In this document: piece after piece, positions 9,648-23,755 of the stretch
Position numbering within the stretch: the first letter of the stretch is position 1
Layout: each line of letters begins with the position of its first letter
Source: Halomicrobium mukohataei DSM 12286
GTDB taxonomy: Archaea > Halobacteriota > Halobacteria > Halobacteriales > Haloarculaceae
Reading direction: 5' to 3'
Length of the DNA stretch: 32,000 nucleotides
Assembly: GCF_000023965.1 (NCBI RefSeq)
Contig: NC_013202.1
Coordinates: 1,590,001-1,622,000 of the forward strand
The notes under the pieces: model-generated
Databases searched by the model: none
What the model saw: only the letters and a program-made list of their open reading frames with translations
What the model was told of the DNA's origin: nothing
Translations under genes and position numbers: made by a program

Positions 9648-9850
9648 ACCTACCTCGCCGTGAACGGCGAGGTTTGTCGGTGGACTCCCGGTCTGTCCAC
9701 TATACTGTGGAAGGCGAGTAGTCGCCGTTCCCGTTCACTGTTCCCGACTTCAGGGCGAGGTGATGGGTCGCCCCTCCAGAACCAGACTTGAGCCGGTTCT
9801 GGATGAATCTGTGTGCGATGTTGCGCGCCGCGTTGTAGTCGCTATGAAGT
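9648..9850 (-). ncRNA. Predicted omega (right-end) RNA scaffold of the TnpB element
   Basis: Positional inference only. In characterised TnpB systems the guide RNA overlaps the 3' end of tnpB and the right end. Here the tnpB stop (9700) lies 26 nt from the right-end hairpin (9652-9673). Exact 5' and 3' ends are unknown. Confidence 0.3.
9652..9673 (-). repeat. Right-end subterminal hairpin of the IS element
   Basis: ACCTCGCCG-TGAA-CGGCGAGGT: perfect 9-bp stem with a 4-nt loop. Confidence 0.6.
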
Positions 9851-10917
9851 TCTTTCCCGCATTTCTGGCAGGTGAACTGGTCGCCGTCGCGGTTGTCCTC
9901 GTGGGTGAAGCCACAGTCGGCGTGACTACACCGCTGGCTGGTGTAGGCCGGATGGACTGATTCGACAGCGATTCCTTCGGCACGGGCTTTGTATGTCGTC
10001 TGGCGCTTCAACTCGCGGAACGCCCACTGCTGGAATTTCGAGGCGTTCGAGATACGTTCTCGTATCTGTTCCAAGTCCTCGAACACGATTGCCGAACAGC
10101 CCCGTGACATGGCTTCTTTCACCAGTCGTTTCGACGTTTGGTGTAGAACGTCCTCGGACCAGTTAGCGAAGGTGTCACCGATTGACTGAATCGTGAGGTG
10201 TGCGCTTCGCGTCCCCTGTTGTTGTAGTCGGGCGCGACGACGTTCATACTCGCGGCGCTTGTGGTTCAGTAGGTCAGCGTTGCCGATGAACGCTCCTGTA
10301 CTGGTGACAGCAAGATACCCGTCGACGTTCCGGTCTACGCCGAGAACTGTTCGGCTCTCGGCCTCTTCCAACGAATCTTCGCGTTCCTGTTTGACGGAAA
10401 CGTGCAAGTAGTAGGTATCGGTCTGATGGTCGTATCGGAGTTTCGCGCCTTGTTTGGTCCACTCGCTACTCTCCATGTATTCGGCCTGGAGCGAGTCGTC
10501 TGGGTAGACGTATTCAGCATGAACACGCCCACTTCCGTAAGCGGCCAGCGAACAGTATCCGTCGAAGTAACTGATTGCACTGGTGTTGTAGACGGTCGTG
10601 TTCGACGTGAACACAGGTTTTGAGGGGCGTTCGCCAGCTTTCATTTTGTCTACACAGCCGGTAAGCGCGTCGGCGGCATGGTTGACGGCGGCCACGGTCA
10701 AGTCTGAGTGAAGGCCGGTGTCGTCCCGTATGTCGTCGTAGACGAGCGGTTGTAGTCGAGAGCGCGACGTTATCACGTACCCATTGTCATCTCTTTCCCA
10801 TCCCCGGTTGGCAAACCGCTGTGCAGCGTCCCGAAACGTGTTCATCGTTCGTTTCAGGTCGTCGCGCCGCTGGTCGGGGACGGAAAGTTTGACGACAGCA
10901 GTACGCTGAATCTCCAT
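9700..10917 (-). CDS. tnpB: TnpB (IS605 OrfB-type) RuvC-like RNA-guided endonuclease
   Basis: 405 aa. RuvC motifs VLGVDRNVDG (D), SAIVFEDL (E) and HSDYNAARNIAHRF (D). Zinc finger CSHADCGFTHEDNRDGDQFTCQKCG between them. The ORF appears intact. Confidence 0.9.
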   Translation of the reverse strand: MEIQRTAVVKLSVPDQRRDDLKRTMNTFRDAAQRFANRGWERDDNGYVITSRSRLQPLVYDDIRDDTGLHSDLTVAAVNHAADALTGCVDKMKAGERPSKPVFTSNTTVYNTSAISYFDGYCSLAAYGSGRVHAEYVYPDDSLQAEYMESSEWTKQGAKLRYDHQTDTYYLHVSVKQEREDSLEEAESRTVLGVDRNVDGYLAVTSTGAFIGNADLLNHKRREYERRRARLQQQGTRSAHLTIQSIGDTFANWSEDVLHQTSKRLVKEAMSRGCSAIVFEDLEQIRERISNASKFQQWAFRELKRQTTYKARAEGIAVESVHPAYTSQRCSHADCGFTHEDNRDGDQFTCQKCGKELHSDYNAARNIAHRFIQNRLKSGSGGATHHLALKSGTVNGNGDYSPSTV

Positions 10918-11482: not shown

Positions 11483-12184
11483 TCAGGGACGCCGCGCTTC
11501 GAGCACCGGCATCTCCTCGATGCGGTCCTCGTCGAGGGCCGCCCAGTCGATGCCGTCCGGGCGGTCGTACGGCGTCGCCGTCTCGACGGTCCGTTCGGGC
11601 GTCACCACCAGGTCCATCGGTACGTCGTGTTCGTCGACGAGTTCGTGGTCTCGAAGCTGGCGCTCGTGGACCGTCGTCACCACTGGCGTCTCGTCGTCGA
11701 CCAGATCGAGTTCGCGGAGCAGCGCGTATTCGAGGTCGCTGTACCCCTCGCCCTTGCCGATCCGCGCACCGCGTTCGCTGACGGCGACGCTCCCCGAGAC
11801 GATCAGGTCGATCGCGGGCATCTCGTCGGGGCCGACCTGCACGCCCGCCTCGCTGGAGCCGCTGACGGTCGTGGCGTCGTCGATGTCGTCGACCGCCGCC
11901 GGGTCGAGTTCGATGAAACACCGCTCGTCGCGCAACCGCGGGACGGCCATGTAGACGGTCTTGCCGGCCCGCATCGCCGCCCGCCGGACCGGGAGCTGCG
12001 GGGCGTCGGGGTTGGCCTTTAGGGCGTCGGCGTCCGCCCAGATCGCCGTCTCGGCCAGCCGGTCGGCCGCGGCGTCCGCGTCGGCGAAGTTCGGGATGCG
12101 ACCGTGGGGCGGGAACGGAAACCGGGCGTCGCCGCTCTCTTCGAGGTCGTCCCACACGCGCTGGCGCAGCGTCTGCTTGTCCAT
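11483..12184 (-). CDS. 5-formyltetrahydrofolate cyclo-ligase family protein
   Basis: The C-terminal 233 aa of ORF 11483..13996(-), starting at MDKQTLRQRVWDDLEE (ATG 12184). Family-like motif IDLIVSGSVAVSERGARIGKGEGYSDLEYALL (G-x-R-I/L-G-x-G-x-G-Y-x-D). The longer N-terminal extension is antisense to the FNT gene. Confidence 0.8.
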   Translation of the reverse strand: MDKQTLRQRVWDDLEESGDARFPFPPHGRIPNFADADAAADRLAETAIWADADALKANPDAPQLPVRRAAMRAGKTVYMAVPRLRDERCFIELDPAAVDDIDDATTVSGSSEAGVQVGPDEMPAIDLIVSGSVAVSERGARIGKGEGYSDLEYALLRELDLVDDETPVVTTVHERQLRDHELVDEHDVPMDLVVTPERTVETATPYDRPDGIDWAALDEDRIEEMPVLEARRP

Positions 12185-12271
12185 GTGGACGGCGACGGAC
12201 GCTCGCACAAAAGCGCTGGCGTCACGCCGGAAACCAAACGCTTTCCTCGGGGCCGACGGAGAATCACGACG

Positions 12272-14086
12272 ATGGACGAACAGGATCCACCAGATCCCGA
12301 GGAGAGCGTGAGAGAGGCCGTCGAGCGGTCTCGCAGTGGGGCTCCGGCAGTGGGACGGGTCGTTCGCGACCGGTTCTCGACCGACGAGGTGTTCCAGCGC
12401 ATCGTCGCCGCGGCCGACGAGGAGATCACGTCGGGCAGTCGCGAGCTGTACTTCAGCGGTCTGGCGGCCGGGTTCGCGATCACGATCACGTTCCTGATGC
12501 TGGTGTCGCTGACGGCCTCGACCGGCGGCGACCCGATTCTGAGCACGCTCCTGTACCCGCTGGGGTTCATCTACATCATCATCGGCGGCTACCAGCTGTA
12601 CACGGAGAACACGCTGCCGCCCGTCGCGCTGACGCTGGAGCGCATCGCCAGCGTGCCCGCGCTCTTGCGCAACTGGATCGTCGTGCTCGCCGGGAACTTC
12701 ACCGGCGGCGCGATCGGCGCGATGGCGCTGGCCTGGGGCGGGGTGCTGTCGGCCGACGGGACGGCCGCGGCGTTCTCGATCGCACAGAAGGGCATCAAGG
12801 CGAGCCAGGGCGAACTGTTCGTGAAGGCCGCGTTCGCCGGGCTGATCGTCGCTGGCGTCGTCTGGGTCGAGTACGCCTCTCGGGACACGATCTCGCGGAT
12901 CGCCGTCGTCTACCTCGCCTTCCTCGCGATCCCGCTTGGCGGGCTCTACCACGTCGTGGTCTCCTTTACCGAGATGGTGTATCTGGTGCTGGTCGGCGAT
13001 CTCGGGGTCGTCGTCGGGATGGTCGAGTTCGTGCTCCCCGTGTTGCTCGGTAACACCGTCGGCGGCATCCTGCTGGTCACCGTCGTCAACTACTTCCAGA
13101 CGACCGAGGAGCGCCTGGAGTCGGCCCGTTTCGACGGTGCCAACCGACAGCTCTCCTGGCGAGAGTGGATCCTGGGCGGTCTCGCGGGGCGGTCGTACGT
13201 GCCCCTGATCGACACGAGCGAGCGAGCGGCCGGACACGGCGCTGGCTCCGAGCGGATCCTTGTTCCGATCTCCAACCCGCGGACCGAGGGGACCCTCGCC
13301 GAGCTCGCGTGTGCGTACGCTGCCGGCAAGGAGGCGGCCTACGTGGAGTTCGTCCACATCGTCCGCCTGCCCGACCGGCTGGCGGGCGGGTACGGCGGCG
13401 ACCAGACCGACCAGATCGTCGCCGAATCCGACGCACAGATGGAGCGGGTCCGCGAGATCGCGTCCAGCTACGAGGTCGACTCCGAGACCTCGACGATCGT
13501 CTCGCATCGCTCCATCGAGGAGGTGTTCCAGCTCGCAGACCGGAAGGGCGCGGACACGGTCGTGATGGGCTGGGACGAGGACGCGCTCTGGAAGGCCGGC
13601 CGGGCCGAACGCCCGCTCGACGAGCTGACGAGTTCGCTCCCGGCGGACTTCCTGGTGCTTGCCGATCGCGGGTTCGATCCCGAGGAGATCCTGATTCCGG
13701 TCGCGGGCAACGAACACTCCGTGCTGAGCGGCGAAGTCGCCAGTGCGCTCGGCCAGACCGTCGGTTCGGCGATCTCGCTGCTCCGGGTCGCCGACGGGCC
13801 GGGCCGGCGGACGGAAAACGAGGACTTTCTCGCCCGGTGGGCGAAGAACAACGACCTCGAATCGGCAGACCGCATCGTCGACGACAGCGGCGACGTCGAG
13901 GGGGCCATCGTGCGGGCCGCACCGGAACACGGCCTCATCATCATCGGGGCGACCAGAGACGGGCTCCTCTCGCGGATCGGGAGCGACTCGCTGCACCTCG
14001 ACGTGCTGTCGGACGTGGACTGCTCGGTGTTGCTCGCCGAGCGAGCGACCGAGCGCGGGCTGCTCCAGCGGCTGTTCGGGAACTGA
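12272..14086 (+). CDS. Formate/nitrite transporter (FNT) family channel fused to two C-terminal universal-stress-protein domains
   Basis: ATG at 12272 (MDEQDPPDPEES). FNT features: six TM helices, LAGNFTGGAIGA, GGLYHVVVSFTEM, LLGNTVGGILLV. USP-like domain 1: ILVPISNPRTEGTLAELA...ADTVVMGW. USP-like domain 2: ILIPVAGNEHSVLSGEVA...HGLIIIGATRDG...CSVLLAE. Confidence 0.85.
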   Translation: MDEQDPPDPEESVREAVERSRSGAPAVGRVVRDRFSTDEVFQRIVAAADEEITSGSRELYFSGLAAGFAITITFLMLVSLTASTGGDPILSTLLYPLGFIYIIIGGYQLYTENTLPPVALTLERIASVPALLRNWIVVLAGNFTGGAIGAMALAWGGVLSADGTAAAFSIAQKGIKASQGELFVKAAFAGLIVAGVVWVEYASRDTISRIAVVYLAFLAIPLGGLYHVVVSFTEMVYLVLVGDLGVVVGMVEFVLPVLLGNTVGGILLVTVVNYFQTTEERLESARFDGANRQLSWREWILGGLAGRSYVPLIDTSERAAGHGAGSERILVPISNPRTEGTLAELACAYAAGKEAAYVEFVHIVRLPDRLAGGYGGDQTDQIVAESDAQMERVREIASSYEVDSETSTIVSHRSIEEVFQLADRKGADTVVMGWDEDALWKAGRAERPLDELTSSLPADFLVLADRGFDPEEILIPVAGNEHSVLSGEVASALGQTVGSAISLLRVADGPGRRTENEDFLARWAKNNDLESADRIVDDSGDVEGAIVRAAPEHGLIIIGATRDGLLSRIGSDSLHLDVLSDVDCSVLLAERATERGLLQRLFGN

Positions 14087-14136: not shown

Positions 14137-16509
14137 GTGGACGAGACTATCGCGTGGCTCCGGGAACGACCCTTCTACGAGGGGCAGATCGTCGACCAGC
14201 GGACGGTACCGGGACGGGACGCGACCGTCGCCGACCTCGACGTACGCGACCGACTGGCCGACGCGCTGGCCGAGGACGGCATCGAACAGCTCTACGCCCA
14301 CCAGGCCGACGCCGTCGGAGCCGTCCGTGACGGCGACAACGTGGTGCTTTCGACCGCGACGGCGAGCGGAAAGAGTCTCGCCTACACGGTGCCGGCCTTC
14401 GAGCGCGCCCTCGAAGATCGCCGGACCACACTCTACGTCGCCCCCCAGGTCGCGCTGATCAACGACCAGACGGAGACGCTCTCGACGCTGGCGGATCGGC
14501 TCGGCTTCGCGTCGGGCGTGTCGGTCGCCCAGTACACCGGCCGCCAGTCCCAGACCGAGAAAGAGCAGATCCGCGAGCGCCAGCCCACCGTCCTCCTGAC
14601 GACGCCGGACATGCTCCACTACGGCATCTTGCCCCACGCACACCGCCTCTGGAAGTGGTTCTTCCAGCGACTCGACACCGTCGTGGTCGACGAGGTCCAC
14701 AGCTACCGGGGGGTGTTCGGCAGTCACGTCGCACTCGTGTTTCGACGCCTCCAGCGCATCGCAGAGCGGTTCGACGCCGAGCCGGAGTGGCTCTGTTGCT
14801 CGGCGACGATCGGCAACCCCGTCGAGCACGCGGCGACGGTGACCGGCACTGCCCCGTCCTCGTACCGACTCGTCGACGACGACGCCAGCGCCAGCGGCCC
14901 CCGCCACTGGCTGGTGTGGAACCCGCCCGAGTACAGCGGGGACGGCTGGGGGAGCGGCCGCCGGAAGTCCAGTCACGTCGAGACCAGACGGCTGTTCGTC
15001 GAGCTGGTCCAGCGGGGCCTCCAGACGGTGGTGTTCACCGGCTCGCGCCAGACTGCAGAGCGCTACGCGGCGGACAGCGCCGAGGCACTGCGCGACCGGG
15101 GAGCCCACGACCTCGCGGACGCCGTCGGTGCGTACCAGGCCGCACTGACCGACGACCGTCGCCGTCGGCTGGAGCGAGAACTCAAGTCCGGCGCGCTGCG
15201 TGGCGTCTGGAGCACGAACGCGCTGGAACTCGGCGTCGACGTGGGCGGTCTCGACGCCGTCGTGCTCGATGGCTACCCCGGCACCCGGATGCAGACCTTC
15301 CAGCAGGCGGGCCGGGCCGGACGCGGGCGCGACCCCGCCCTCGTCGTGCTGGTCGGCGGCGAGGACCAGCTCGACCAGTACGTCGTCGACAACCCGGACA
15401 CGCTGTTCGAGCACCCGCCCGAGCAGGCGGTGACGAACCCGGAGAACGAACAGCTCATGCCCGCACACGCCTGCTCGGCCGCCCGCGAGACGTGGCTGAA
15501 ACCCGACGACGACCGGTACTTCGGCGAGACGTTCCCCGCGCTGGTGGCCGACCTGGAGCGGGACGGCCGCCTCGCGCGCCGGACGACTGCGGAGGGGACC
15601 CGCTGGGTGTACGGCGGCGAGGGCAGTCCACAGCACGAGACGAGTCTCCGGACCGTCGACGACCAGTCGATCCAGCTGCGCCACGGCGAGGACACGATCG
15701 CGACGCTACCCCTCGGCGACGCGCTGCGAGACGCACACCCCGGCGCGATCTACCACCACCAGGGGACGACCTACGAGGTGACCGACCTCGACCTCGATCA
15801 CGGCATCGCCGAACTCGACCGGACGTGGGCCGACTACTTCACCCGCGTGCGCCACGAGAAGGAGATCACCGTCGAGGCCGACCTGCGAGCGGACACGCTC
15901 GACGCCCGGCCCGACGTGCCCGTGCGCTTTGCGGACGTGACCATGCGCAAGCAGATCACCGGCTACGAGCGCCGCGACGGGCAGAACGGCGAGGTGATCG
16001 GGCGGCGTAGCCTCGATCTCCCCGAGACAACCCTCAGGACCAAAGCGCTGTATTTCACCGTCCCCGCGGATCTAGAGCGAGCGATGCTTGGCGAGGCGGT
16101 CCCGGCGACCGACGACGGGACGGCGGACGGCCGCGACCGTCCGCCCGCCCCCGACGATCCCGGCGACTTCCCCGGCGGCATCCACGCCGCCGAACACGCC
16201 GCGATCTCGATGCTCCCCTTCGAGTATCTCTGTGACCGCCGCGACGTTGGCGGGCTCTCGACGCCGCTGCACCCCCACACCGACGAGCCCACGATCTTCG
16301 TGTACGACGGCCATCCCGGCGGCGTCGGCATCGTCCGGAGCGCCTACGACGACGTCGAGGGGCTGCTGGCGACGACGCTCTCGATGCTGCGGTCCTGTGA
16401 CTGTGCCGACGGCTGCCCGGCCTGCGTGCAGTCGCCCCACTGTGGCAACGCCAACGACCCGCTGGACAAGGGGCTGGCGACGTACCTGCTGGACGGGCTG
16501 ACGGAGTGA
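14137..16509 (+). CDS. DEAD/DEAH-box (DEVH) superfamily-2 helicase with C-terminal DUF1998 / MrfA-type zinc-binding domain
   Basis: GTG start. Walker A TATASGKS, DEVH box, SAT motif, motif VI QQAGRAGRG. C-terminal Cys cluster CDCADGCPACVQSPHCGNANDPLDK. Confidence 0.9.
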   Translation: MDETIAWLRERPFYEGQIVDQRTVPGRDATVADLDVRDRLADALAEDGIEQLYAHQADAVGAVRDGDNVVLSTATASGKSLAYTVPAFERALEDRRTTLYVAPQVALINDQTETLSTLADRLGFASGVSVAQYTGRQSQTEKEQIRERQPTVLLTTPDMLHYGILPHAHRLWKWFFQRLDTVVVDEVHSYRGVFGSHVALVFRRLQRIAERFDAEPEWLCCSATIGNPVEHAATVTGTAPSSYRLVDDDASASGPRHWLVWNPPEYSGDGWGSGRRKSSHVETRRLFVELVQRGLQTVVFTGSRQTAERYAADSAEALRDRGAHDLADAVGAYQAALTDDRRRRLERELKSGALRGVWSTNALELGVDVGGLDAVVLDGYPGTRMQTFQQAGRAGRGRDPALVVLVGGEDQLDQYVVDNPDTLFEHPPEQAVTNPENEQLMPAHACSAARETWLKPDDDRYFGETFPALVADLERDGRLARRTTAEGTRWVYGGEGSPQHETSLRTVDDQSIQLRHGEDTIATLPLGDALRDAHPGAIYHHQGTTYEVTDLDLDHGIAELDRTWADYFTRVRHEKEITVEADLRADTLDARPDVPVRFADVTMRKQITGYERRDGQNGEVIGRRSLDLPETTLRTKALYFTVPADLERAMLGEAVPATDDGTADGRDRPPAPDDPGDFPGGIHAAEHAAISMLPFEYLCDRRDVGGLSTPLHPHTDEPTIFVYDGHPGGVGIVRSAYDDVEGLLATTLSMLRSCDCADGCPACVQSPHCGNANDPLDKGLATYLLDGLTE

Positions 16510-16531: not shown

Positions 16532-17161
16532 TCAGCCCAGTTCCTCGACGAACTCCTTGACGATCTTCTCCTCGGCCCGGTGGAGCGTCTCGCTGCAGGT
16601 CGACTTGGCGATGCCGACCTCCGAGGCGAGTTCGGTCAGCGAACAGTCCCGCGGCGTGTCGTAGTAGCCGTTCTCGACGGCGGCCTGGATCAACTCCAGT
16701 TGGCTCCCCGTGAGCAGCTGCTCGGTCTCGACGTGCTGGCTGACCCGCTCGACGTGGAACGGAATGCCGAACTCTTCGAGTTGCTGGCCCAGCGCGGACA
16801 GTCGCTCCTGTGGCGCGGTGATCTCCCAGCGGGCCTCGCCGTCGCTGAGTCTGAACGGCATCTCCAGTGGGATACCGGAGCCCTGCACCGGGAACAACAG
16901 GAGCGGATCGCTGGTCTCGAACTGGACCAGCGCCGTGTCCTCCCAGCGCTGGAGAATCTCTAAACTGGTGACGGCCTCACTCTCGTCCATCTGGCCGAGG
17001 ATGGCGACCAGTTCGTCGGCGGTGATCTCCGTGAGCCCGACGCCCGACTCCTCGCCGGGGACCGCCGCCAGGATGCGAAACTCCGCGTCCGGAAACGACC
17101 GCGAGAGCGAACCGATCCACACCTCCTCTGGAATCGTCAGCGTCAGTTCGGCTCGTGGCAT
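16532..17161 (-). CDS. Bat-type HTH_10 DNA-binding regulator
   Basis: ORF 16532..17503(-) trimmed to MPRAELTLTIPEEVWIGSLSRSFPDAEFRILAAVPGEE (ATG 17161). C-terminal HTH: LTGSQLELIQAAVENGYYDTPRDCSLTELASEVGIAKSTCSETLHRAEEKIV. Confidence 0.85.
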   Translation of the reverse strand: MPRAELTLTIPEEVWIGSLSRSFPDAEFRILAAVPGEESGVGLTEITADELVAILGQMDESEAVTSLEILQRWEDTALVQFETSDPLLLFPVQGSGIPLEMPFRLSDGEARWEITAPQERLSALGQQLEEFGIPFHVERVSQHVETEQLLTGSQLELIQAAVENGYYDTPRDCSLTELASEVGIAKSTCSETLHRAEEKIVKEFVEELG

Positions 17162-17166
17162 GTGTG

Positions 17167-17212
17167 CGAATATGTTCGTCCGGGCGACGGCTCCTGTCCC
17201 GAACATGTTCGG
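17167..17212. promoter_or_regulatory. Candidate operator pair in the divergent HTH_10 / SRPBCC promoter
   Basis: Perfect 14-bp palindrome CCGAACATGTTCGG (17199-17212) and an imperfect copy CGAATATGTTCG (17167-17178), 33 bp centre to centre. The half-site ACATGTTCGG recurs at 17768-17777, upstream of the CGCGG gene. Confidence 0.4.
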
Positions 17213-17318: not shown

Positions 17319-17735
17319 ATGCAAGAAGTAACGGTGACGCGGGATTTGCCGGCCGCGCCCGAGGCGGTCCGCTCGCTGGTCGAAGAGACCGAGTCGTTCA
17401 TGAGTGCCGCCGGGTTCGACGCCGTCCGCGTGGAGGGCGAGACCATCCGGATCCAGAACCGCGTGGGGCTGTTCGACGTCGAGCTCATCGCCGGCATCGT
17501 CAAGGACGACGACGCCGTGCTCGCCTACGAACAGGAAGAGGGGATCTTCGAGGACATGCACACGGCCTACCACCTCGAAGAGACCGACGACGGCACGACG
17601 ATCTCGGCGACGACCACGTTCGAGGCCGTGGACCTGCCGATCGTCGGCCAGGTGCTGGACGCGACCGTCGTCAAGCGCCAGCGCAGCTCCGAGTTGAACG
17701 CGCAATTCGACTGGCTCGAAGCGGAGCTCTCGTAG
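17319..17735 (+). CDS. SRPBCC (START / polyketide-cyclase-like) ligand-binding family protein
   Basis: 138 aa from ATG 17319: MQEVTVTRDLPAAPEAVRSLVEETESFMSAAGFD...TTFEAVDLPIVGQVLDATVVKRQRSSELNAQFDWLEAEL. Size and pattern are typical of haloarchaeal SRPBCC proteins. The assignment is by resemblance only. Confidence 0.7.
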   Translation: MQEVTVTRDLPAAPEAVRSLVEETESFMSAAGFDAVRVEGETIRIQNRVGLFDVELIAGIVKDDDAVLAYEQEEGIFEDMHTAYHLEETDDGTTISATTTFEAVDLPIVGQVLDATVVKRQRSSELNAQFDWLEAELS

Positions 17736-17814
17736 TCCGGTTCTCGCCCCCCTGGAAAATCTCCCTCACATGTTCGGGACGGTGCAGTCGGTCGTGGCGC
17801 TCCAAGCTGTTCGT

Positions 17815-18111
17815 ATGAGCGTCTCACACGACGACGTCGAGCCCGTGACCGACCACGTCCACGAGAACTCCTGGTCGGTGAACCTCGAACAGCCAGCCCA
17901 CGGCGACGACCGCGACCTCGTCGTGGCCCAGGCGATCGACGCGATCGAACACACGGCCTCGGGCAACCACGTCAACCTCGTCACGCACGGCGAGCACGGC
18001 CACCCGGAGACGTACCTCTACGACGCCCTCGAAGCGCGCGAGGACGTGACCTACGACTACGTCGAACAGTGTGGCTGTGGCGGCCACGTGGTCCGCGTCC
18101 AGGTGCAATGA
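17815..18111 (+). CDS. Small acidic His-rich protein with C-terminal CGCGG motif (putative rSAM-modified precursor or substrate protein)
   Basis: MSVSHDDVEPVTDHVHENSW...HTASGNHVNLVTHGEHGHPETYLYDALEAREDVTYDYVEQCGCGGHVVRVQVQ*. Its TGA (18109-18111) overlaps the ATG (18108-18110) of the radical SAM gene. An alternative upstream ATG lies at 17770. Confidence 0.75.
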   Translation: MSVSHDDVEPVTDHVHENSWSVNLEQPAHGDDRDLVVAQAIDAIEHTASGNHVNLVTHGEHGHPETYLYDALEAREDVTYDYVEQCGCGGHVVRVQVQ

Positions 18112-19202
18112 GGGGCGTCGACGTCGAGGAACGGCCGCTGGTGCTGATCTGGGAGCTGACACAGGCCTGTGGGCTGACCTGCAAGCACTGCCGGGCCGAC
18201 GCCCGGCCCGAGCGTCATCCCGACGAGCTCACGACCGCCGAGGGCAAGCGGTTGCTCGATCAGGCCGCCGACTTCGGCGACGGCCAGCTGGTCGTGCTCT
18301 CGGGGGGCGACCCGCTCGTGCGCGACGACGTGACCGAACTCGTCGAGTACGGTACCCGGCAGGGACTGGGAATGACACTGACCCCCAGCGGCACCGAGTC
18401 GCTGACCCCGGAGCGCATCGAAGCCCTGCAGGACGCCGGGCTCCGCCGGATGGCCCTCTCTCTGGACGGTGGCGACGCCGACTCCCACGACGCCTTCCGC
18501 GGCGAGTCCGGGAGCTTCGAGGCGACGCTCGCGGCCGCCGAGGCCGCCCGTGAGACCGATCTCCCCTTGCAGATCAACACGACGGTGTGTGCCGAGACGG
18601 TCGACCAGCTGCCGGCGATCCGGGAACTCGTGGCCGACCTCGGTGCGGTCATGTGGTCGGTGTTCTTCCTCGTCCCGGTCGGTCGGGGTCGGGTGCTGAC
18701 CCAGATCAGCCCCGACCGGGCCGAGCGAGTGATGGAGTGGCTCCACGAGGTCTCCGAGTCGGAGCCGTTCGGCCTCAAGACGACGGAAGCACCCCACTAT
18801 CGACGGGTGACCATCGAGCGAGAGCGCGACGGAGAGGCCGGAGAGAACGACGGGCTCCAGCGTCGCACCGGCATCCGCGCGGGCCAGGGCTTTGCCTTCG
18901 TCAGTCACACCGGCGAGATGTACCCCTCGGGGTTCCTCCCGGAGTCGGCCGGCAACGTCCGCTCGGAGGGCGTCGTCGATCTGTATCGAGAGTCGGCGCT
19001 GTTTCAGCGCCTCCGTGACGACAGTGCCCTGGAAGGCAAATGCGGTGCCTGCCCCTACCGCGGGGTCTGTGGCGGGAGCCGTTCGCGGGCGTACGCGGCG
19101 ACCGGCGACCCGATGGGCAGCGATCCGCTGTGTTCGTTCGTGCCCGACGAGTACGACGGTCCGCTCCCCGCGACCCACGGGGAGCGCGTTCCCACAGACT
19201 GA
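18108..19202 (+). CDS. Radical SAM enzyme with C-terminal SPASM-type Cys-rich domain
   Basis: MRGVDVEERPLVLIWELTQACGLTCKHC (CxxxCxxC). Followed by VLSGGDPL. C-terminal auxiliary-cluster cysteines: GKCGACPYRGVCGGSRSRAYA...DPLCSF. Confidence 0.9.
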   Translation: MRGVDVEERPLVLIWELTQACGLTCKHCRADARPERHPDELTTAEGKRLLDQAADFGDGQLVVLSGGDPLVRDDVTELVEYGTRQGLGMTLTPSGTESLTPERIEALQDAGLRRMALSLDGGDADSHDAFRGESGSFEATLAAAEAARETDLPLQINTTVCAETVDQLPAIRELVADLGAVMWSVFFLVPVGRGRVLTQISPDRAERVMEWLHEVSESEPFGLKTTEAPHYRRVTIERERDGEAGENDGLQRRTGIRAGQGFAFVSHTGEMYPSGFLPESAGNVRSEGVVDLYRESALFQRLRDDSALEGKCGACPYRGVCGGSRSRAYAATGDPMGSDPLCSFVPDEYDGPLPATHGERVPTD

Positions 19203-19247: not shown

Positions 19248-19874
19248 ATGTCCGAGGGACTTCGCGTCGAGCTGGCGATCGACTCGCCCGAGGCCTGCCC
19301 CGTCGCCGACGCCTCCGAGCGGGTCGACGGGTCGGTCACGAACGTCACGCGTTCGACCGGCGGCGAAGCGGTCGTCGAAGAGTTCTCCGCGCCCGCCGGA
19401 ACGGACGTGGGCGAGGCCGTCGAACCGCTCTTCGAGAACGGCTCGGAGGCGCGCTATCGCTTCCGGCGCGATCCCGACCAGGACTGTTTCTGTGACGCCG
19501 TCGAGACGTTCGACTGTGCGGTCAGCGACATCCAGGCGGAGGACGGGCAAGTCATCGCCACGGCCCACGTCGACGACGCGGCCCAGGTGCGTGCAGTCGT
19601 CGAGGAACTCCGGGACGCGTTCGGCGACGTGGCCCTGCGCTCGCTGCACCAGCACGGCGAGGGGACGCTGGGGGACGCCGTCGTCGTCGACCGCGGACAG
19701 CTGACCGATCGACAGCGCGAAGTGCTGGAAACCGCCCACGAGATGGGCTATTTCGACTATCCGAAAGGCGCGAACGCCGGTGAGGTCGCCGAGGCGCTCG
19801 ACATCTCCGTCTCGACGCTGGCCGAGCACCTCGCGGCCGCCCAGACCAAACTGCTCGACGACGTACTGCCCTAG
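19248..19874 (+). CDS. Bat-type HTH_10 DNA-binding regulator with Cys-containing N-terminal domain
   Basis: C-terminal LTDRQREVLETAHEMGYFDYPKGANAGEVAEALDISVSTLAEHLAAAQTKLL. The N-domain carries cysteines at SPEACPVAD, DQDCFCDAVETFDC. Confidence 0.85.
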   Translation: MSEGLRVELAIDSPEACPVADASERVDGSVTNVTRSTGGEAVVEEFSAPAGTDVGEAVEPLFENGSEARYRFRRDPDQDCFCDAVETFDCAVSDIQAEDGQVIATAHVDDAAQVRAVVEELRDAFGDVALRSLHQHGEGTLGDAVVVDRGQLTDRQREVLETAHEMGYFDYPKGANAGEVAEALDISVSTLAEHLAAAQTKLLDDVLP

Positions 19875-19902: not shown

Positions 19903-21078
19903 TCATCCGCGGGCGACGAACGCGCTCGCGAGCAGGGAGGCGTAGCCGACTGCCCCCGCGAGCACGGCCAGCCGTCCGACCGGGGTCGCGCTCGGCACGA
20001 CCAGACCCGCGAGCTGGCACAGGAGTCCAGCCGCGAGAAGCGAGACACTGGCCAGCGCCGTCCGGTCGTTCGACCCCGGCCAGACGCCCACCGACGGGGG
20101 GTAGAACTGCAGGGCCGCACCGACGATCGTCAGGCCCAGAAAGCCCACGAGCGCGAACTGGTAGTGCAGAGTCACCACCGCGGGGGCTCGCCCGACGAAG
20201 ACGAGGTGTGTGGCCAGACCGACCGCGACGACGCCCGCGGCGACGCCCGCGAGGACGGCCCGCAGTCCGACCCGCGTGCGGTCGGAGCGTCGGTACAGCA
20301 GTCCGTAGGCGAGCGCGAAGCCGAGGATCGCGACCGCCTCGAGGATCGCGCCGACCACCAGGAACGGTCCGCCGTCCAGCCCGGTCGCGAGGAGTGCGGG
20401 GCCGACGCTGCCGGCACCGAGGACGACGAGCACGAGCGCACGTGGGGGGTGTGCGACCAGAAACCGCGGGAACAGCCGGAAGCCGACGGCAAACACCAGC
20501 AGCGCCGCCCCGCCCGCCCCCAGCAGGTGTGAGATCCGAGCCGGGACACCGCCCAGTGGCGCTGGGAGCCCGACCGCACCCGCGAACAGCGCGTAGCTCC
20601 CGACCGACAGATAGCCAGCGACGAACGGGACCGCGGCGTTGCTGACGCGATCGATCGGACGCCGATCGGACTGGTGGTCGCCGGTGGCAGTCTCCCGACC
20701 GGTGAGATTGTCCCGAACGGTCCAGCCGAGTGCGCCGAGCCAGACGAGGACACCGGCGAACCACGCCGCCGCGCCGACCGTCGACACGACGCCGGGAACG
20801 CCCGGCCGCGTGCCGGCTGCCAGCGCGACGACGCCGACGACGGAGAGGGGAAACTGGACGGCCGGGGCTCGCGGCGTCGCCAGCGTCCGGTCGAAGTACG
20901 ACGGGATCAGCGCGTAGGACTTCCCGAAGACCGTGTGCAAGACGAAGCCGTACAGCAACAGGACGACCGCCGGCCGTCGTCCGACGCCGAGCGGCGCGAG
21001 GACCGCCCAGGCGACGAGCGCGGCCGCGCCTGCCCCGACGAACCGTCGCGACCACCGCGAGACCCGTGGTGGCGACAT
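19903..21078 (-). CDS. Polytopic (about 12 TM) membrane protein of unknown function; weak NnrS-like resemblance
   Basis: 391 aa, hydrophobic throughout. Chosen over the Arg-rich alternative frame 19871..21055. Recurrent His-led helices: LHTVFGKSYALIPSYF, HLLGAGGAALLVFAVGFRLFPRF, HYQFALVGFLGLTIVGAALQFYPP. Confidence 0.7.
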   Translation of the reverse strand: MSPPRVSRWSRRFVGAGAAALVAWAVLAPLGVGRRPAVVLLLYGFVLHTVFGKSYALIPSYFDRTLATPRAPAVQFPLSVVGVVALAAGTRPGVPGVVSTVGAAAWFAGVLVWLGALGWTVRDNLTGRETATGDHQSDRRPIDRVSNAAVPFVAGYLSVGSYALFAGAVGLPAPLGGVPARISHLLGAGGAALLVFAVGFRLFPRFLVAHPPRALVLVVLGAGSVGPALLATGLDGGPFLVVGAILEAVAILGFALAYGLLYRRSDRTRVGLRAVLAGVAAGVVAVGLATHLVFVGRAPAVVTLHYQFALVGFLGLTIVGAALQFYPPSVGVWPGSNDRTALASVSLLAAGLLCQLAGLVVPSATPVGRLAVLAGAVGYASLLASAFVARG

Positions 21079-21135: not shown

Positions 21136-21567
21136 CTACTCCAGTTCCCGCTCGCGCTCCTGGCTGGCCCGCTCGCGGTACTCTTCGACGTCTTCGAGCG
21201 TCTCGGTCTCCAGCAGTCGGTCGAGCTTGCGCTCGAACTGCTCGTCGGTGAGCTCGCCTTCGGCGTAGCGACGGCGCAGCGCCTCCAGTGGGATCTCGTT
21301 CGGACTGTCGGCTTCCCGCTCCGATTCGTCTCTCGTCGTCTCGCCAGATACAGTGCCGGTCACGTCGTCGGCCCACTCCTCTCGGTCTTCCTCGTCGCCG
21401 AACAGGGTCGCGGTCAGTGGAACGAACACGGCGTATCCGACGATCAGCGCCGGGAGCCACCACTCCTGTCCGGTGAACAGACCGATCATCCAGATGCCGG
21501 TCACCAGCATGGAGACGATCCCCGTGGCGTTCTCGCGGGCGCGGTCGATCGGCGTCTCCTCGCTCAT
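21136..21567 (-). CDS. Two-TM membrane protein with C-terminal SHOCT-like domain
   Basis: ORF trimmed to MSEETPIDRARENATGIVSMLVTGIWMIGLFTGQEWWLPALIVGYAVFVPL. C-terminus LEALRRRYAEGELTDEQFERKLDRLLE matches the SHOCT pattern. Confidence 0.75.
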   Translation of the reverse strand: MSEETPIDRARENATGIVSMLVTGIWMIGLFTGQEWWLPALIVGYAVFVPLTATLFGDEEDREEWADDVTGTVSGETTRDESEREADSPNEIPLEALRRRYAEGELTDEQFERKLDRLLETETLEDVEEYRERASQERERELE

Positions 21568-21590
21568 TGGTCGTGGTTCTCGGGAGACGG

Positions 21591-21597
21591 TTATAAT
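21591..21597 (-). promoter_or_regulatory. TATA box for the SHOCT-domain gene
   Basis: TTATAAT (palindromic TTATAA core) is centred 27 nt upstream of ATG 21567. Confidence 0.4.
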
Positions 21598-21610
21598 GGT
21601 GGCGAGAGCG

Positions 21611-22111
21611 TCACTCGTCGCCGGAGAGGGGTTCGATCGGGACCCCGCCGACGCGCTCGCCCGGTGCCACGTCGCGGTTGACGAACGAGTGGGCGGCGAC
21701 CGTCGCACCGTCGCCGATCGTCACGCCCGGCCGCGTCGAGGAGCCGTGTCCCAGGGTCACGTCGTCGCCGATCTCGACGGGGCCGACGTGCCACTCGTCG
21801 GTGTACCCCTCGTGGGTGAGCAGCTTCGTCCCCCAGCCGATCAGCGATCCCTCGCCGATCGTGATCTTCTCCGGGAAGAACGGGTCGACGACGACGGCCG
21901 GCGCGAGCACTGAGCCCGACCCGATCTCGACGCCGAAGGCCCGATAGACCGGGTTCTTGGCGATCGGTGGCAGGTGTTTACACAGTTCGAAGACGTAGTA
22001 GGTCAGGCCGAACCGGATCGGATTCCGTATCTGGTACCAGCCAGCGGCCGGTACGTCGCGGCGTTCGACGCTGTCGTCGACGGTCGACCGCTTCGCTTCG
22101 CGTCCGTCCAT
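21611..22111 (-). CDS. Left-handed beta-helix (hexapeptide-repeat) acyl/acetyltransferase
   Basis: IGSGSVLAPAVVVD, ITIGEGSLIGWGTKLLTHE, VEIGDDVTLGHGSSTRPGVTIGDGATVAAHSFVNRDV: hexapeptide-repeat periodicity. Confidence 0.85.
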   Translation of the reverse strand: MDGREAKRSTVDDSVERRDVPAAGWYQIRNPIRFGLTYYVFELCKHLPPIAKNPVYRAFGVEIGSGSVLAPAVVVDPFFPEKITIGEGSLIGWGTKLLTHEGYTDEWHVGPVEIGDDVTLGHGSSTRPGVTIGDGATVAAHSFVNRDVAPGERVGGVPIEPLSGDE

Positions 22112-22165: not shown

Positions 22166-23686
22166 TCACTCGACCGACGCGAGGGCCTCGGTGTCGCCCA
22201 GCGCCGGATAGTCCTCGAAGATCGCGGTGGCGGTGTGTTCGCCGCTGATGAGACACATCGGCATCCCGATCCCCGGCGTCGTGTAGGCCCCGGTGTAGTA
22301 GAAGCCGTCCAGTGGACCGCGGTGACTCGGTCGGAAGGGACCGGTCTGGAACAGGGTGTGTGCGAGACCCAGCGCCGTCCCGTCGGGGTCACCGTAGCGG
22401 TCGGCGAACTCGCTGACGCAGGCCGTCGTCTCCGAGACGATCCGATCGCGGAGGTCCACGCCGGTGTGTTCTGCCAGATCCGTGAGGACCTGCTCGCGGA
22501 ACCGCTCGCGCACGTCCGGAGCGTCGTCGAGACCCGGAGCGATCGGGACGAGCGCGACGACCGCGTGGTGTCCGTCGGGAGCGACGGTGTCGTCGGTCTT
22601 CGAGGTCACCGAGAGGTAGTAGGCCGGATCGTCGGGCCAGCGCGGCTCGTCGAAGATCGCCTCGAAGTGGTCCGACCAGTCCGTCGGCAAGACGAGCGTG
22701 TGATGTTCGAGCGGGTCCACGTCGCCCTCGACGCCGAGATACAGCAAGAACGCCGACGGCGCGTAGGTCTGGTCGTCCCAGTATCCGGGGTCGTGTGCGC
22801 GGTCCCGGTCGTCGAGCAGCGCTCGCTCGGTGTCGGCCGGGTTGGCGTTGCTGACGACGAGGTCGCTCTCTACGAGGCCGTCGTCGGTCGACAGTTCGAA
22901 CTGACCGGCCTCGCCGCCGACGTGCTGGACCTCGACGCCGGTCCGGATGGTGACGCCTTGCTCGCGGGCCAGCTCCGCCAGCGCGTCGACGACGCCAGCG
23001 ATACCCCCCTCCGGGTAGAAGACGTTCAGGTTCAGGTCGACGTGACTCATGATCGAGTACAGCGCAGGGGTGTTGTACGGCGAGCCACCGAGGAAGACGA
23101 GGGTGTACTCCAGGAGCTGACGGAGCTTCGGGTGCTCGACGTAGCGGCTCACGTAGTCGTCTATGTTCCCGAACAGGCGATAGCGCGGTGCCATCGGGAG
23201 CAGGTCGGTGTCGACGAACTCTCGGAGTCGCTCACGGCCCTCGTAGACGACGCGATCCATCGCCAGCTCGTAGTTGCGCTCGGCGTCGTCGAGGTACGCG
23301 GCGAGTGCCTCGCCGGCCCCCTCCTCGTAGGACTCGAAGATCGCCTCGACGCGGTCGCGATCGGGCGGGACCGTCACGCTGTCGCCGTCCTTCCAGCACA
23401 CCCGGTACTGTGGATCGAGTCGCTCCAGTTCGTAGTAGTCACCCGGTTCGCGGTCGAAGTGAGCGAAGAACCGCTCGAACACGTCGGGCATCAGGTACCA
23501 GGACGGTCCCGTGTCGAACCGGAACCCGTCGCGTTCGAGTACACCGGCGTGACCCCCGACCCGGTCGTGGCGTTCGAGGAGTCGCACGTCCAGTCCTGCC
23601 CGTCCGAGGTACGCGGCCGCCGAGAGGCCGCCGAACCCGCCGCCGATCACCGTCACCGTCGGATCGCCCGAGCGCCGACTTTGCAT
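22166..23686 (-). CDS. crtI: Phytoene-desaturase-family (CrtI/CrtD-type) FAD-dependent carotenoid desaturase
   Basis: ORF 22166..24211 trimmed to MQSRRSGDPTVTVIGGGFGGLSAAAYLGRAGLDVRLLERHDRVGGHAGVLERDGFRFDTGPSWYLMPDVFE (ATG 23686). C-terminal GFYYTGAYTTPGIGMPMCLISG. CrtI cannot be distinguished from CrtD by eye. Confidence 0.85.
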   Translation of the reverse strand: MQSRRSGDPTVTVIGGGFGGLSAAAYLGRAGLDVRLLERHDRVGGHAGVLERDGFRFDTGPSWYLMPDVFERFFAHFDREPGDYYELERLDPQYRVCWKDGDSVTVPPDRDRVEAIFESYEEGAGEALAAYLDDAERNYELAMDRVVYEGRERLREFVDTDLLPMAPRYRLFGNIDDYVSRYVEHPKLRQLLEYTLVFLGGSPYNTPALYSIMSHVDLNLNVFYPEGGIAGVVDALAELAREQGVTIRTGVEVQHVGGEAGQFELSTDDGLVESDLVVSNANPADTERALLDDRDRAHDPGYWDDQTYAPSAFLLYLGVEGDVDPLEHHTLVLPTDWSDHFEAIFDEPRWPDDPAYYLSVTSKTDDTVAPDGHHAVVALVPIAPGLDDAPDVRERFREQVLTDLAEHTGVDLRDRIVSETTACVSEFADRYGDPDGTALGLAHTLFQTGPFRPSHRGPLDGFYYTGAYTTPGIGMPMCLISGEHTATAIFEDYPALGDTEALASVE

Positions 23687-23755
23687 GCCCGTCGCTAGCG
23701 GTCCCGTCGTTTTGAGGGCACCTGCCGTTCCCACACACTGGGAGTTAGGTATTCC

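Follow-up and report, generated by a model that had tools for sequence, protein, structure and literature searches.

A pair of overlapping genes in the haloarchaeon Halomicrobium mukohataei DSM 12286 raises the question of what a small protein with a Cys-Gly-Cys-Gly-Gly (CGCGG) motif does beside a radical S-adenosylmethionine (SAM) enzyme. The pair lies in a stretch of 32,000 nucleotides (contig NC_013202.1, positions 1,590,001 to 1,622,000), hereafter called the window and numbered from its first letter, in which the gene of a 98-residue CGCGG-family protein (17815..18111, plus strand) runs into that of a 364-residue enzyme (18108..19202, plus strand). The original prediction, made from the DNA letters, took the two for an uncharacterised modification cassette. 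The pair is also a bona fide member, with the defining adjacency, of a computationally predicted association of TIGR04053 enzymes with TIGR03995/PF26005, the 'CGCGG family putative rSAM-modified RiPP protein' (RiPP, ribosomally synthesized and post-translationally modified peptide). We favour a different answer, to which we give about an even chance as a whole: an AhbD enzyme and a CGCGG protein acting as a metal or iron–sulfur (Fe–S) accessory, both encoded in an anaerobic operon.

The radical SAM enzyme and its AhbD relatives

Translation confirmed the features from which the original prediction started, namely an acidic, His-rich open reading frame (ORF) of 98 amino acids, an ATGA overlap (TGA of the CGCGG gene at 18109-18111, ATG of the enzyme gene at 18108-18110) and a CGLTCKHC radical SAM site. 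In a search of the NCBIfam hidden Markov models (HMMs), the enzyme matches TIGR04053 with 494.1 bits (cut-off 395, E=2.7e-148). The next model is AhbD, aligned over its full length with 341.8 bits, followed by NirJ2 (220), NirJ (161) and AhbC (160); PqqE (139 bits) and MftC (131 bits) rank after these tetrapyrrole models.

The enzyme is 73% identical to P0218 (ADE02283.1; UniProt D4GUU1, 'Coproheme decarboxylase AhbD'), the single Haloferax volcanii DS2 protein among its close homologues; the P0218 gene has nirK and norB on either side, as does HVO_2144. P0218/HVO_2144 scores 500.1 bits against TIGR04053 and 338.6 bits against the AhbD model, and since the window protein shares this score profile, we regard TIGR04053 as the haloarchaeal AhbD clade. 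Deletion of HVO_2144 (ahbD) leaves aerobic growth intact and abolishes growth by denitrification or dimethyl sulfoxide (DMSO) respiration, and protoheme rescues the mutant (PMC5746218). HVO_2144 is listed as ahbD and shares 42% identity with the M. barkeri AhbD, which has been characterised biochemically (PMC8305020). The enzyme half of the proposed cassette is thus the orthologue of a genetically validated AhbD (PMC5746218, PMC8305020), and through this orthology it falls within a family with a known, unrelated substrate, an outcome that the original prediction had itself named as speaking against a modification cassette.

The cysteine pattern leads to the same family. The enzyme carries C21-x3-C25-x2-C28, the CGLTCKHC site of a radical SAM core that begins at residue 13-16, and C312-x2-C315-x5-C321-x20-C342 near its C-terminus; all eight of its Cys, five of which do not belong to the radical SAM motif, recur in 121 orthologues. 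The SPASM-like C-terminal extension proposed originally is therefore real as far as the cluster C312/C315/C321/C342 is concerned, but it corresponds to the second half of SPASM only. With the first half absent, the enzyme has ligands for one auxiliary cluster and not two; it does not present the full SPASM motif (7-8 Cys, two auxiliary clusters), and, as judged from the Cys pattern, it and its 121 orthologues lack the AuxI cysteines. All AhbDs contain CX3CX2C and a C-terminal CX2CX5CX20-38C, and the non-methanogenic archaeal AhbDs, with a Halorubrum sequence in the alignment, are without the four AuxI cysteines (PMC10452713), a pattern that the window enzyme and the 121 orthologues match. Methanogen and sulfate-reducer AhbDs, in contrast, possess these four residues.

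The window enzyme therefore resembles AhbD (M. barkeri Mbar_A1458, D. vulgaris AhbD and HVO_2144) in its full-length alignment, in both Cys motifs and in its anaerobic regulation (PMC5746218; supplement of PMC11218638), and we conclude that it is very probably AhbD, the oxygen-independent heme synthase. Two points weigh against this assignment. The AhbD evidence is genetic and comes from another genus, Haloferax, and neither the window enzyme (341.8 bits) nor HVO_2144 (338.6 bits) reaches the 500-bit cut-off of TIGR04545, the NCBIfam AhbD equivalog, so that the window enzyme is filed as TIGR04053. Because the validated HVO_2144 also falls below it, we interpret this cut-off as excluding the whole haloarchaeal clade. 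Haloarchaeal AhbD function is already published for Haloferax, and both families of the pair are already catalogued. No small coupled partner has been described for the characterised AhbDs, whereas the window enzyme has the CGCGG protein.

Peptide- and protein-modifying SPASM enzymes (PqqE/PqqA, MftC/MftA, AlbA, anSME/sulfatase, QhpD/QhpC) belong to the same superfamily as the window enzyme, and the gene of the modified polypeptide is often adjacent; QhpC and the sulfatases exemplify folded proteins as radical SAM substrates. The window enzyme differs from these modifiers in having one auxiliary-cluster motif instead of two and in scoring 131-139 bits against their models versus 342 against AhbD. 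Pfam recognises Radical_SAM in it, together with weak, below-cut-off matches to Fer4_12 and Amidohydro_2, and detects no RiPP recognition element (RRE)/PqqD domain in the enzyme; none is present among the neighbours (SRPBCC, HTH_10, DmsR-like) either.

Sequence and predicted fold of the CGCGG protein

The CGCGG ORF translates into 98 amino acids, with the C-terminal end EQCGCGGHVVRVQVQ / TYDYVEQCGCGGHVVRVQVQ preceding the stop. An alternative in-frame ATG at 17770, 5' of 17815, would yield 113 amino acids; since homologues begin at MSVSHDDVEP, we place the start at 17815. The protein contains 10 His, 19 Asp+Glu versus 3 Lys+Arg (isoelectric point 4.6) and two Cys, at positions 86 and 88. Its sequence is that of the Halomicrobium sp. 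ZPS1 / H. mukohataei protein (100% identity), and the H. katesii locus matches this one at 97-99% identity. Residues 17-97 match the full 83-position TIGR03995 profile (133.9 bits, cut-off 70, E=2e-39), and both family names given in the original prediction were thus the right ones. A scan of the protein against a local Pfam copy returned no match; its homologues all carry a precomputed PF26005 assignment.

The family is small, with 97 clusters (50% identity) out of 1.84 billion representatives, and all members that are named or locus-checked come from Halobacteria and Bacillales, the latter being Paenibacillaceae, Thermobacillus, Brevibacillus, Microaerobacter, Anaerobacillus, Texcoconibacillus and Evansella. 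Identity between haloarchaeal genera amounts to 60-87% over the full length. The motif reads C86-G-C88-G-G-H-V-V-R-V in the window protein; it does not vary among 47 haloarchaeal sequences and hardly varies in a 17-sequence alignment that includes bacterial members. The universal core consists of W-S..L-E, T47, V-N-x-V-T, G-x-P and C-G-C-G-G-(H/Y)-V-x-R-V. In haloarchaea, seven His join C86 and C88 as conserved residues, and some paralogues possess His-rich N-terminal tails such as PHDHDHDHDHD. The weight that had been placed on the His residues near CGCGG is not borne out for the family at large: these residues are conserved in haloarchaea and not in bacterial members, and we rejected a His-rich metal site as the conserved family core. 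A CXXCH-like heme attachment site at CGCGGH was dropped as well, the His being Tyr or Phe in many members.

AlphaFold2 predicts an alpha/beta domain (predicted local distance difference test, pLDDT, 79.5; predicted template modelling score, pTM, 0.67) with the CGCGG motif at the turn of a C-terminal beta-hairpin. A RiPP leader/core architecture was rejected on the basis of the 98-residue length, this predicted fold and the conservation over the full length, in agreement with the original suggestion that the small protein is foldable and unlike a classical precursor. We conclude that the CGCGG protein is probably folded, induced anaerobically and not a RiPP precursor. The family profile matched no solved structure in a PDB sequence search. 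Foldseek comparison of the model with the PDB yielded weak matches to class I methyltransferase half-folds only (E >= 0.0066, TM-score ~0.5-0.6), which we treat as a generic Rossmann-like resemblance of the model and not as an indication of function.

The alternation of His and Tyr at positions 52 and 91 bears on one alternative, a coproheme or heme carrier that delivers substrate to AhbD or heme b to NorB and oxidase-like membrane proteins, a Cys thiolate, with His or Tyr, serving as axial ligand. Both alternating residues can ligate heme, and heme b is the common denominator of the neighbours AhbD, NorB and the oxidase-like proteins. We nevertheless find such a carrier very improbable: HMM and PDB profile searches matched the CGCGG protein to no heme-binding family, the model has no obvious pocket-forming fold relative, and the SRPBCC protein encoded in the same operon would be the more natural carrier of a hydrophobic ligand.

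Several family members depart from the single-domain, single-copy arrangement. P0318 (220 amino acids) combines the CGCGG domain with what appears, by eye, to be a C-terminal cupin domain, and P0331 (155 amino acids) fuses it to an Asp/Glu racemase-family domain (precomputed PF01177); a racemase-family gene also lies directly 5' of the CGCGG gene at L045:6273-7291 (L numbers denote the compared loci). One metagenomic contig (GC 0.55) carries two CGCGG-family genes, L080:2502-2774 and 3905-4189, with ~1.1 kb between them. In the literature, the CGCGG family, TIGR04053/TIGR03995 and HVO_2148 appear nowhere in the main texts found, the sole mention being a supplementary table of PMC11218638.

Coupling, regulation and gene neighbourhood

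Pairing was counted from the enzyme side in nine genera and from the small-gene side at 39 genome loci, 41 haloarchaeal metagenome loci and 23 bacterial-type loci. The metagenome and enzyme-side censuses complement the genome census from the small-gene side, which can miss a pairing since many genomes hold two paralogues and the non-adjacent copy was picked. Seen from the enzyme, the PF26005 gene lies directly 5' in Halomicrobium, Haloarcula, Halorarius and Haloarchaeobius (4/9 genera) and 1.7-4.7 kb away in Halosimplex, Natrinema, Halopiger and Haloferax, and thus within 5 kb in eight of the nine; in Halovenus it was not found within 10 kb. Seen from the small gene, the enzyme follows directly at 4/39 genome and 10/41 haloarchaeal metagenome loci (14/80 haloarchaeal loci) and at 0/23 bacterial-type loci, with a TIGR04053-like gene 2.5 kb from the CGCGG gene on one bacterial contig. 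The adjacency that had been expected across genomes accordingly gives a mixed picture, with the small gene mostly nearby when seen from the enzyme and the enzyme mostly not adjacent when seen from the small gene. Where the genes do adjoin, the tight junction seen in the window recurs in other haloarchaea: it measures -4 to +9 nucleotides in 15 of 18 adjacent pairs and is ATGA in four. The gene order SRPBCC-CGCGG-radical SAM is kept in L048, L089, L090, L104, L105, L108, L110, L122 and L123.

Two genera deserve separate mention. In Haloferax, the CGCGG gene and ahbD belong to separate transcription units 4.7 kb apart. Halorarius halobius, like several other genomes, encodes two CGCGG paralogues: the stop codon of one (L050:9669-10004) overlaps the radical SAM start, but this copy has lost CGCGG (VDERAAGHVSEV) along with both Cys and the WS motif, whereas the second (L050:1119-1409) is intact and adjoins nirK. 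Because the tight coupling to ahbD is found again in some haloarchaea, a CGCGG–AhbD partnership is likely there; because of the bacterial context and the Haloferax arrangement, the role of the CGCGG protein is not confined to that of an AhbD substrate.

The same junctions could be read as those of an enzyme and its substrate, the TIGR04053 enzyme abstracting hydrogen in or near the CGCGG hairpin and so introducing a cross-link, a thioether or an oxidised cofactor derived from Cys, instead of or besides making heme. Beyond the 15/18 tight junctions and the proximity in 8/9 genera, the membership of the enzyme in the SPASM/twitch superfamily, which includes protein modifiers, the modelled Cys pair at the hairpin tip and the NCBIfam and Pfam labels of the family as a putative target would fit such a modification. 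We consider it improbable since (i) the orthologue is AhbD and its phenotype is rescued by heme (PMC5746218), (ii) the closest relatives of the enzyme all act on tetrapyrroles, (iii) the enzyme has one auxiliary-cluster motif and no RRE, (iv) it adjoins none of the 23 bacterial genes and sits in another transcription unit 4.7 kb away in Haloferax and (v) the enzyme-coupled Halorarius paralogue lacks both Cys. The TIGR03995/TIGR04053 label departs from our results in two respects: the substrate of the enzyme is very probably a tetrapyrrole, and most family members, including every bacterial locus examined, are not adjacent to it.

Translational coupling also bears on the electron transfer of AhbD, whose physiological external electron acceptor is not known (PMC10452713). 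The CGCGG protein might be this acceptor, or the electron donor to the radical SAM cluster, by means of a bound cluster or a strained Cys-Gly-Cys disulfide/dithiol. Redox-active disulfides are known from CXC peptides, and haloarchaeal AhbDs are without the AuxI cluster. We judge this proposal quite improbable, because CGCGG matches are confined to haloarchaea and Bacillales and do not include the other archaea with AuxI-less AhbD, the bacterial members do not stand beside an AhbD-type enzyme, and Cys is absent from the enzyme-coupled Halorarius copy.

The regulation of the locus points to anaerobic respiration. Anaerobic activation of the H. volcanii nirK depends on a CGAA-N4-TTCG palindrome (PMC5746218, citing Hattori et al. 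2016). In H. mediterranei, the palindrome was mutated in the promoters of nor and nos, and mutation of the box shared by the CGCGG gene and nor lowered nor promoter activity (PMC10062603). We found the exact palindrome within 130 nucleotides 5' of the CGCGG gene in 28 of 41 haloarchaeal genomes, mostly 50-56 nucleotides before the ATG (P ~1e-33 relative to the local background), and this element at -50 is the only feature that Halosimplex CGCGG loci share with the others. In H. mediterranei, the CGCGG gene E6P09_00745 shows a log2 fold change of 4.30 (~20-fold) in denitrification RNA-seq, the divergent nor, which shares its box, one of 5.73, and the TIGR04053 gene one of 2.78 (supplement of PMC11218638). 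The CGCGG gene thus belongs to the haloarchaeal denitrification (NarO-type) regulon. In the window, two exact boxes, CGAATATGTTCG (17167..17178) and CGAACATGTTCG (17200..17211), occupy the divergent promoter 5' of the SRPBCC gene, the far end of the second lying 50 nucleotides from the ATG of the divergent HTH_10 gene; paired boxes spaced 33-35 bp as here also occur in L001, L016, L018 and L033. A degenerate copy with 2 mismatches, CTCACATGTTCG (17765..17776), is located exactly 50 nucleotides 5' of the CGCGG start codon.

Across loci, the most constant CGCGG neighbour in both Halobacteria and bacteria is DUF7998, a DUF59 / FeS_assembly_P-related protein. Also among the most constant neighbours in both domains are polytopic membrane proteins with a distant relationship to heme-copper oxidase subunit I, DUF2249 (sometimes fused to TusA), Cupin_2 and, often, NirK or NorB; genes for TusA-DUF2249 and for Mrp-like FeS_assembly_P-DUF2249 occur in the islands. 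An order often met in haloarchaea is SRPBCC - CGCGG - ahbD - DUF7998 - oxidase-like gene; at Bacillales loci, DUF59-like, oxidase-like and DUF2249 genes accompany CGCGG.

This neighbourhood can be set beside a further alternative, a Cu(I) or iron chaperone for denitrification enzymes (NirK, halocyanins, the non-heme site of NorB or the oxidase-like proteins), with the ahbD link reflecting a shared regulon only. Such a function would be analogous to that of Cox11 CFCF or the CCS CXC motif, and haloarchaeal members have conserved His and a His-rich tail. In several genera the CGCGG gene stands beside nirK or divergent from norB, some islands contain genes for CopA-type ATPase, HMA, CopD and SCO1, and haloarchaeal NirK bears a Tat-type signal, which implies cofactor loading in the cytoplasm. 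The window, however, retains the ATGA coupling to ahbD with no nirK, nor or copper gene in its 32 kb, the constant bacterial neighbours are DUF59-like and oxidase-like and not NirK, and the His are not conserved in bacteria; a chaperone of this kind is quite improbable in our estimation.

The window holds a reduced island, consisting of HTH_10, SRPBCC, CGCGG, ahbD, a DmsR-like regulator and a 391-residue membrane protein. The operon's first gene (17319..17735, plus strand) encodes a 138-residue SRPBCC / polyketide-cyclase-like ligand-binding protein with a weak match to Pfam Polyketide_cyc2 (E=1.7e-4). Divergent from the operon is a gene for a 209-residue HTH_10 (Bat-type) transcription regulator (16532..17161, minus strand, start mapped to 17161; Pfam HTH_10 E=3.6e-19), a homologue of which occupies the equivalent position at many loci. 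Downstream of ahbD follows a 208-residue DmsR/NarO-like regulator (19248..19874, plus strand; DmsR_N + BAT + HTH_10; Pfam DmsR_N E=1.8e-40, HTH_10 E=1.2e-20), with homologues in the equivalent position in Haloarcula (L048, L033). Its gene is separated from ahbD by 45 nucleotides and has no exact palindrome 5' of it, so that the two are probably co-transcribed. The N-terminal domain of this regulator contains four Cys (C17, C80, C82, C90), the same arrangement as in NarO/DmsR-type oxygen or redox sensors. The 391-residue polytopic membrane protein (19903..21078, minus strand; ~10 transmembrane helices), a recurrent island member, has no Pfam or NCBIfam match; it shares 42-52% identity with the products of the genes located after DUF7998 or the regulator in L048, L049, L131 and L133, and its relatives show faint similarity to the oxidase-like protein Hv_446.

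Several other genes of the window were recorded. At 12104-14086 (plus strand), 3.7 kb 5' of the operon, lies the sole other nitrite-related gene of the window, encoding a formate/nitrite transporter (Form_Nir_trans) with a fused universal stress protein domain. The Cas12f1-like TNB domain of a 405-residue ORF (9700-10917, minus strand) is characteristic of TnpB-type nucleases associated with transposons. Between transporter and operon, 14137-16509 (plus strand) encodes a 790-residue DEAD/DEAH helicase with a C-terminal MrfA Zn-binding domain (MZB), and a different helicase-like gene flanks the CGCGG paralogue in Halosimplex (cluster c8, L002-L013). The ORFs of a SHOCT-domain membrane protein (21136-21708, minus strand) and a hexapeptide acyltransferase (21611-22111, minus strand) overlap by 98 nucleotides as listed, and the true start of the SHOCT gene is probably later than listed; a CrtI-like phytoene desaturase follows at 22166-23698.

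A comparable module was observed in Bacillales (L045:7001-14291; L058-L060, L063, L066, L070-L073) and haloarchaea (L042, L049, L050, L133), comprising CGCGG, DUF7998, one or two oxidase-subunit-I-like membrane proteins of 390-460 amino acids, DUF2249 (sometimes TusA-fused), Cupin_2 and a NirK-like copper oxidase. Its occurrence suggests a cross-domain, possibly horizontally transferred accessory set for nitric oxide (NO) and denitrification.

In other genera, an AhbC/NirJ1-like gene (TIGR04347) adjoins the TIGR04053 gene as part of a second pair (L049:8277-9853, L050:11595-13114, L131:8306-9852; also L088, L125). Its enzyme scores 721-747 bits against TIGR04347 'pseudo-SAM/SPASM' and ~430 against the next model, NirJ1/AhbC, and its 5' partner of 101-120 amino acids is PaaB-like and belongs to TIGR04031 'Htur_1727 rSAM-partnered candidate RiPP'. 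This pair stands directly beside the TIGR04053 gene in Natrinema, Halorarius and Halopiger and is not present in the window. Like the CGCGG pair, it joins an Ahb/NirJ-like radical SAM homologue to a small coupled 'candidate RiPP', but the TIGR04031 protein is unrelated to CGCGG and the closest matches of the TIGR04347 enzyme are AhbC/NirJ1. Here too, an enzyme of Ahb/NirJ type may stand beside a small partner to which the RiPP label has been wrongly applied.

Possible roles in anaerobic respiration

In the explanation that we favour, the operon SRPBCC - CGCGG - ahbD - narO/dmsR-like regulator would be induced anaerobically as part of the anaerobic-respiration/denitrification regulon. AhbD, using SAM and a [4Fe-4S] cluster, would decarboxylate two propionates of Fe-coproporphyrin III oxidatively to vinyl groups and so supply heme b without O2 to nitric oxide reductase, nitrate reductase and related proteins. 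The CGCGG protein would be a cytoplasmic alpha/beta protein presenting Cys-Gly-Cys at the hairpin tip, ringed in its haloarchaeal form by seven His and a His-rich tail. Its hairpin Cys pair may bind a metal centre, most likely an Fe–S cluster or iron bridging two protomers, and it may act with the neighbouring DUF59-like protein. The two would then assist AhbD and the island's other metalloenzymes exposed to NO, by maturing or repairing them or by transferring electrons. We infer the metal binding, the dimer and the AhbD partnership alike.

That the CGCGG protein handles a metal or cluster through its Cys-Gly-Cys hairpin, probably across a dimer and with Fe or Fe–S favoured, is a tentative proposal with a little under an even chance. 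It draws on the persistent DUF59-like, Mrp-like and TusA-like neighbours, on the His-rich tails of some paralogues, on the need of Fe–S enzymes such as AhbD to work in NO-rich conditions and on the resemblance, at the motif level, of ECGCG to the CGCG of A-type carriers. IscA/SufA (C-terminal CGCG), Cox11 (CFCF) and CCS domain 3 (CXC) are, like the CGCGG protein, small and soluble with a CXC in a flexible, Gly-rich element near the C-terminus, and the CGCGG protein shares with such metallochaperones and carriers a location beside metalloenzyme and Fe–S assembly genes.

Several points weigh against the favoured explanation. No more than two Cys are universally conserved, and bacterial members have Tyr, Pro or Asp at the haloarchaeal His positions, so that any metal site would depend on a dimer or on ligands from elsewhere. 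Foldseek detected no metalloprotein or chaperone relative of the model in the PDB. Alignment with HesB/IscA by hhalign (using a manually entered E. coli IscA sequence) gave a probability of 41% over a 30-column match around ECGCG, a similarity confined to the motif that is not significant as homology; no homology to SufA, Cox11 or CCS is detectable either, and the predicted fold differs from theirs. The recurrent tight coupling fits an enzyme-substrate pair equally well, and it led curators to the target label. Finally, the Halorarius copy without Cys, cited above against a substrate role, could simply be a gene in decay.

A bolder form of the proposal would make the CGCGG protein a new Cys-hairpin accessory subunit of the anaerobic heme synthase, perhaps as external electron acceptor or as an in-trans cluster or iron donor replacing AuxI under NO stress, or, in a wider sense, a new metallochaperone class shared by those denitrification modules of haloarchaea and Bacillales in which DUF59-like, oxidase-like and DUF2249 proteins also occur; we regard this as rather unlikely.

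For the family, the 'RiPP' label is probably wrong, and genome miners should not count the CGCGG + TIGR04053 pair as a RiPP cluster. The enzyme assigned here as AhbD is the O2-independent heme synthase on which haloarchaeal respiration of nitrate and DMSO depends, and the CGCGG protein is common to haloarchaea and denitrifying or anaerobic Bacillales, where it forms part of a module of uncharacterised proteins. If it is a true redox or cluster partner of AhbD, it would address the missing electron acceptor in anaerobic heme synthesis; otherwise, it would offer, with the genetically accessible Haloferax HVO_2148, a tractable entry to the accessory machinery of archaeal denitrification.

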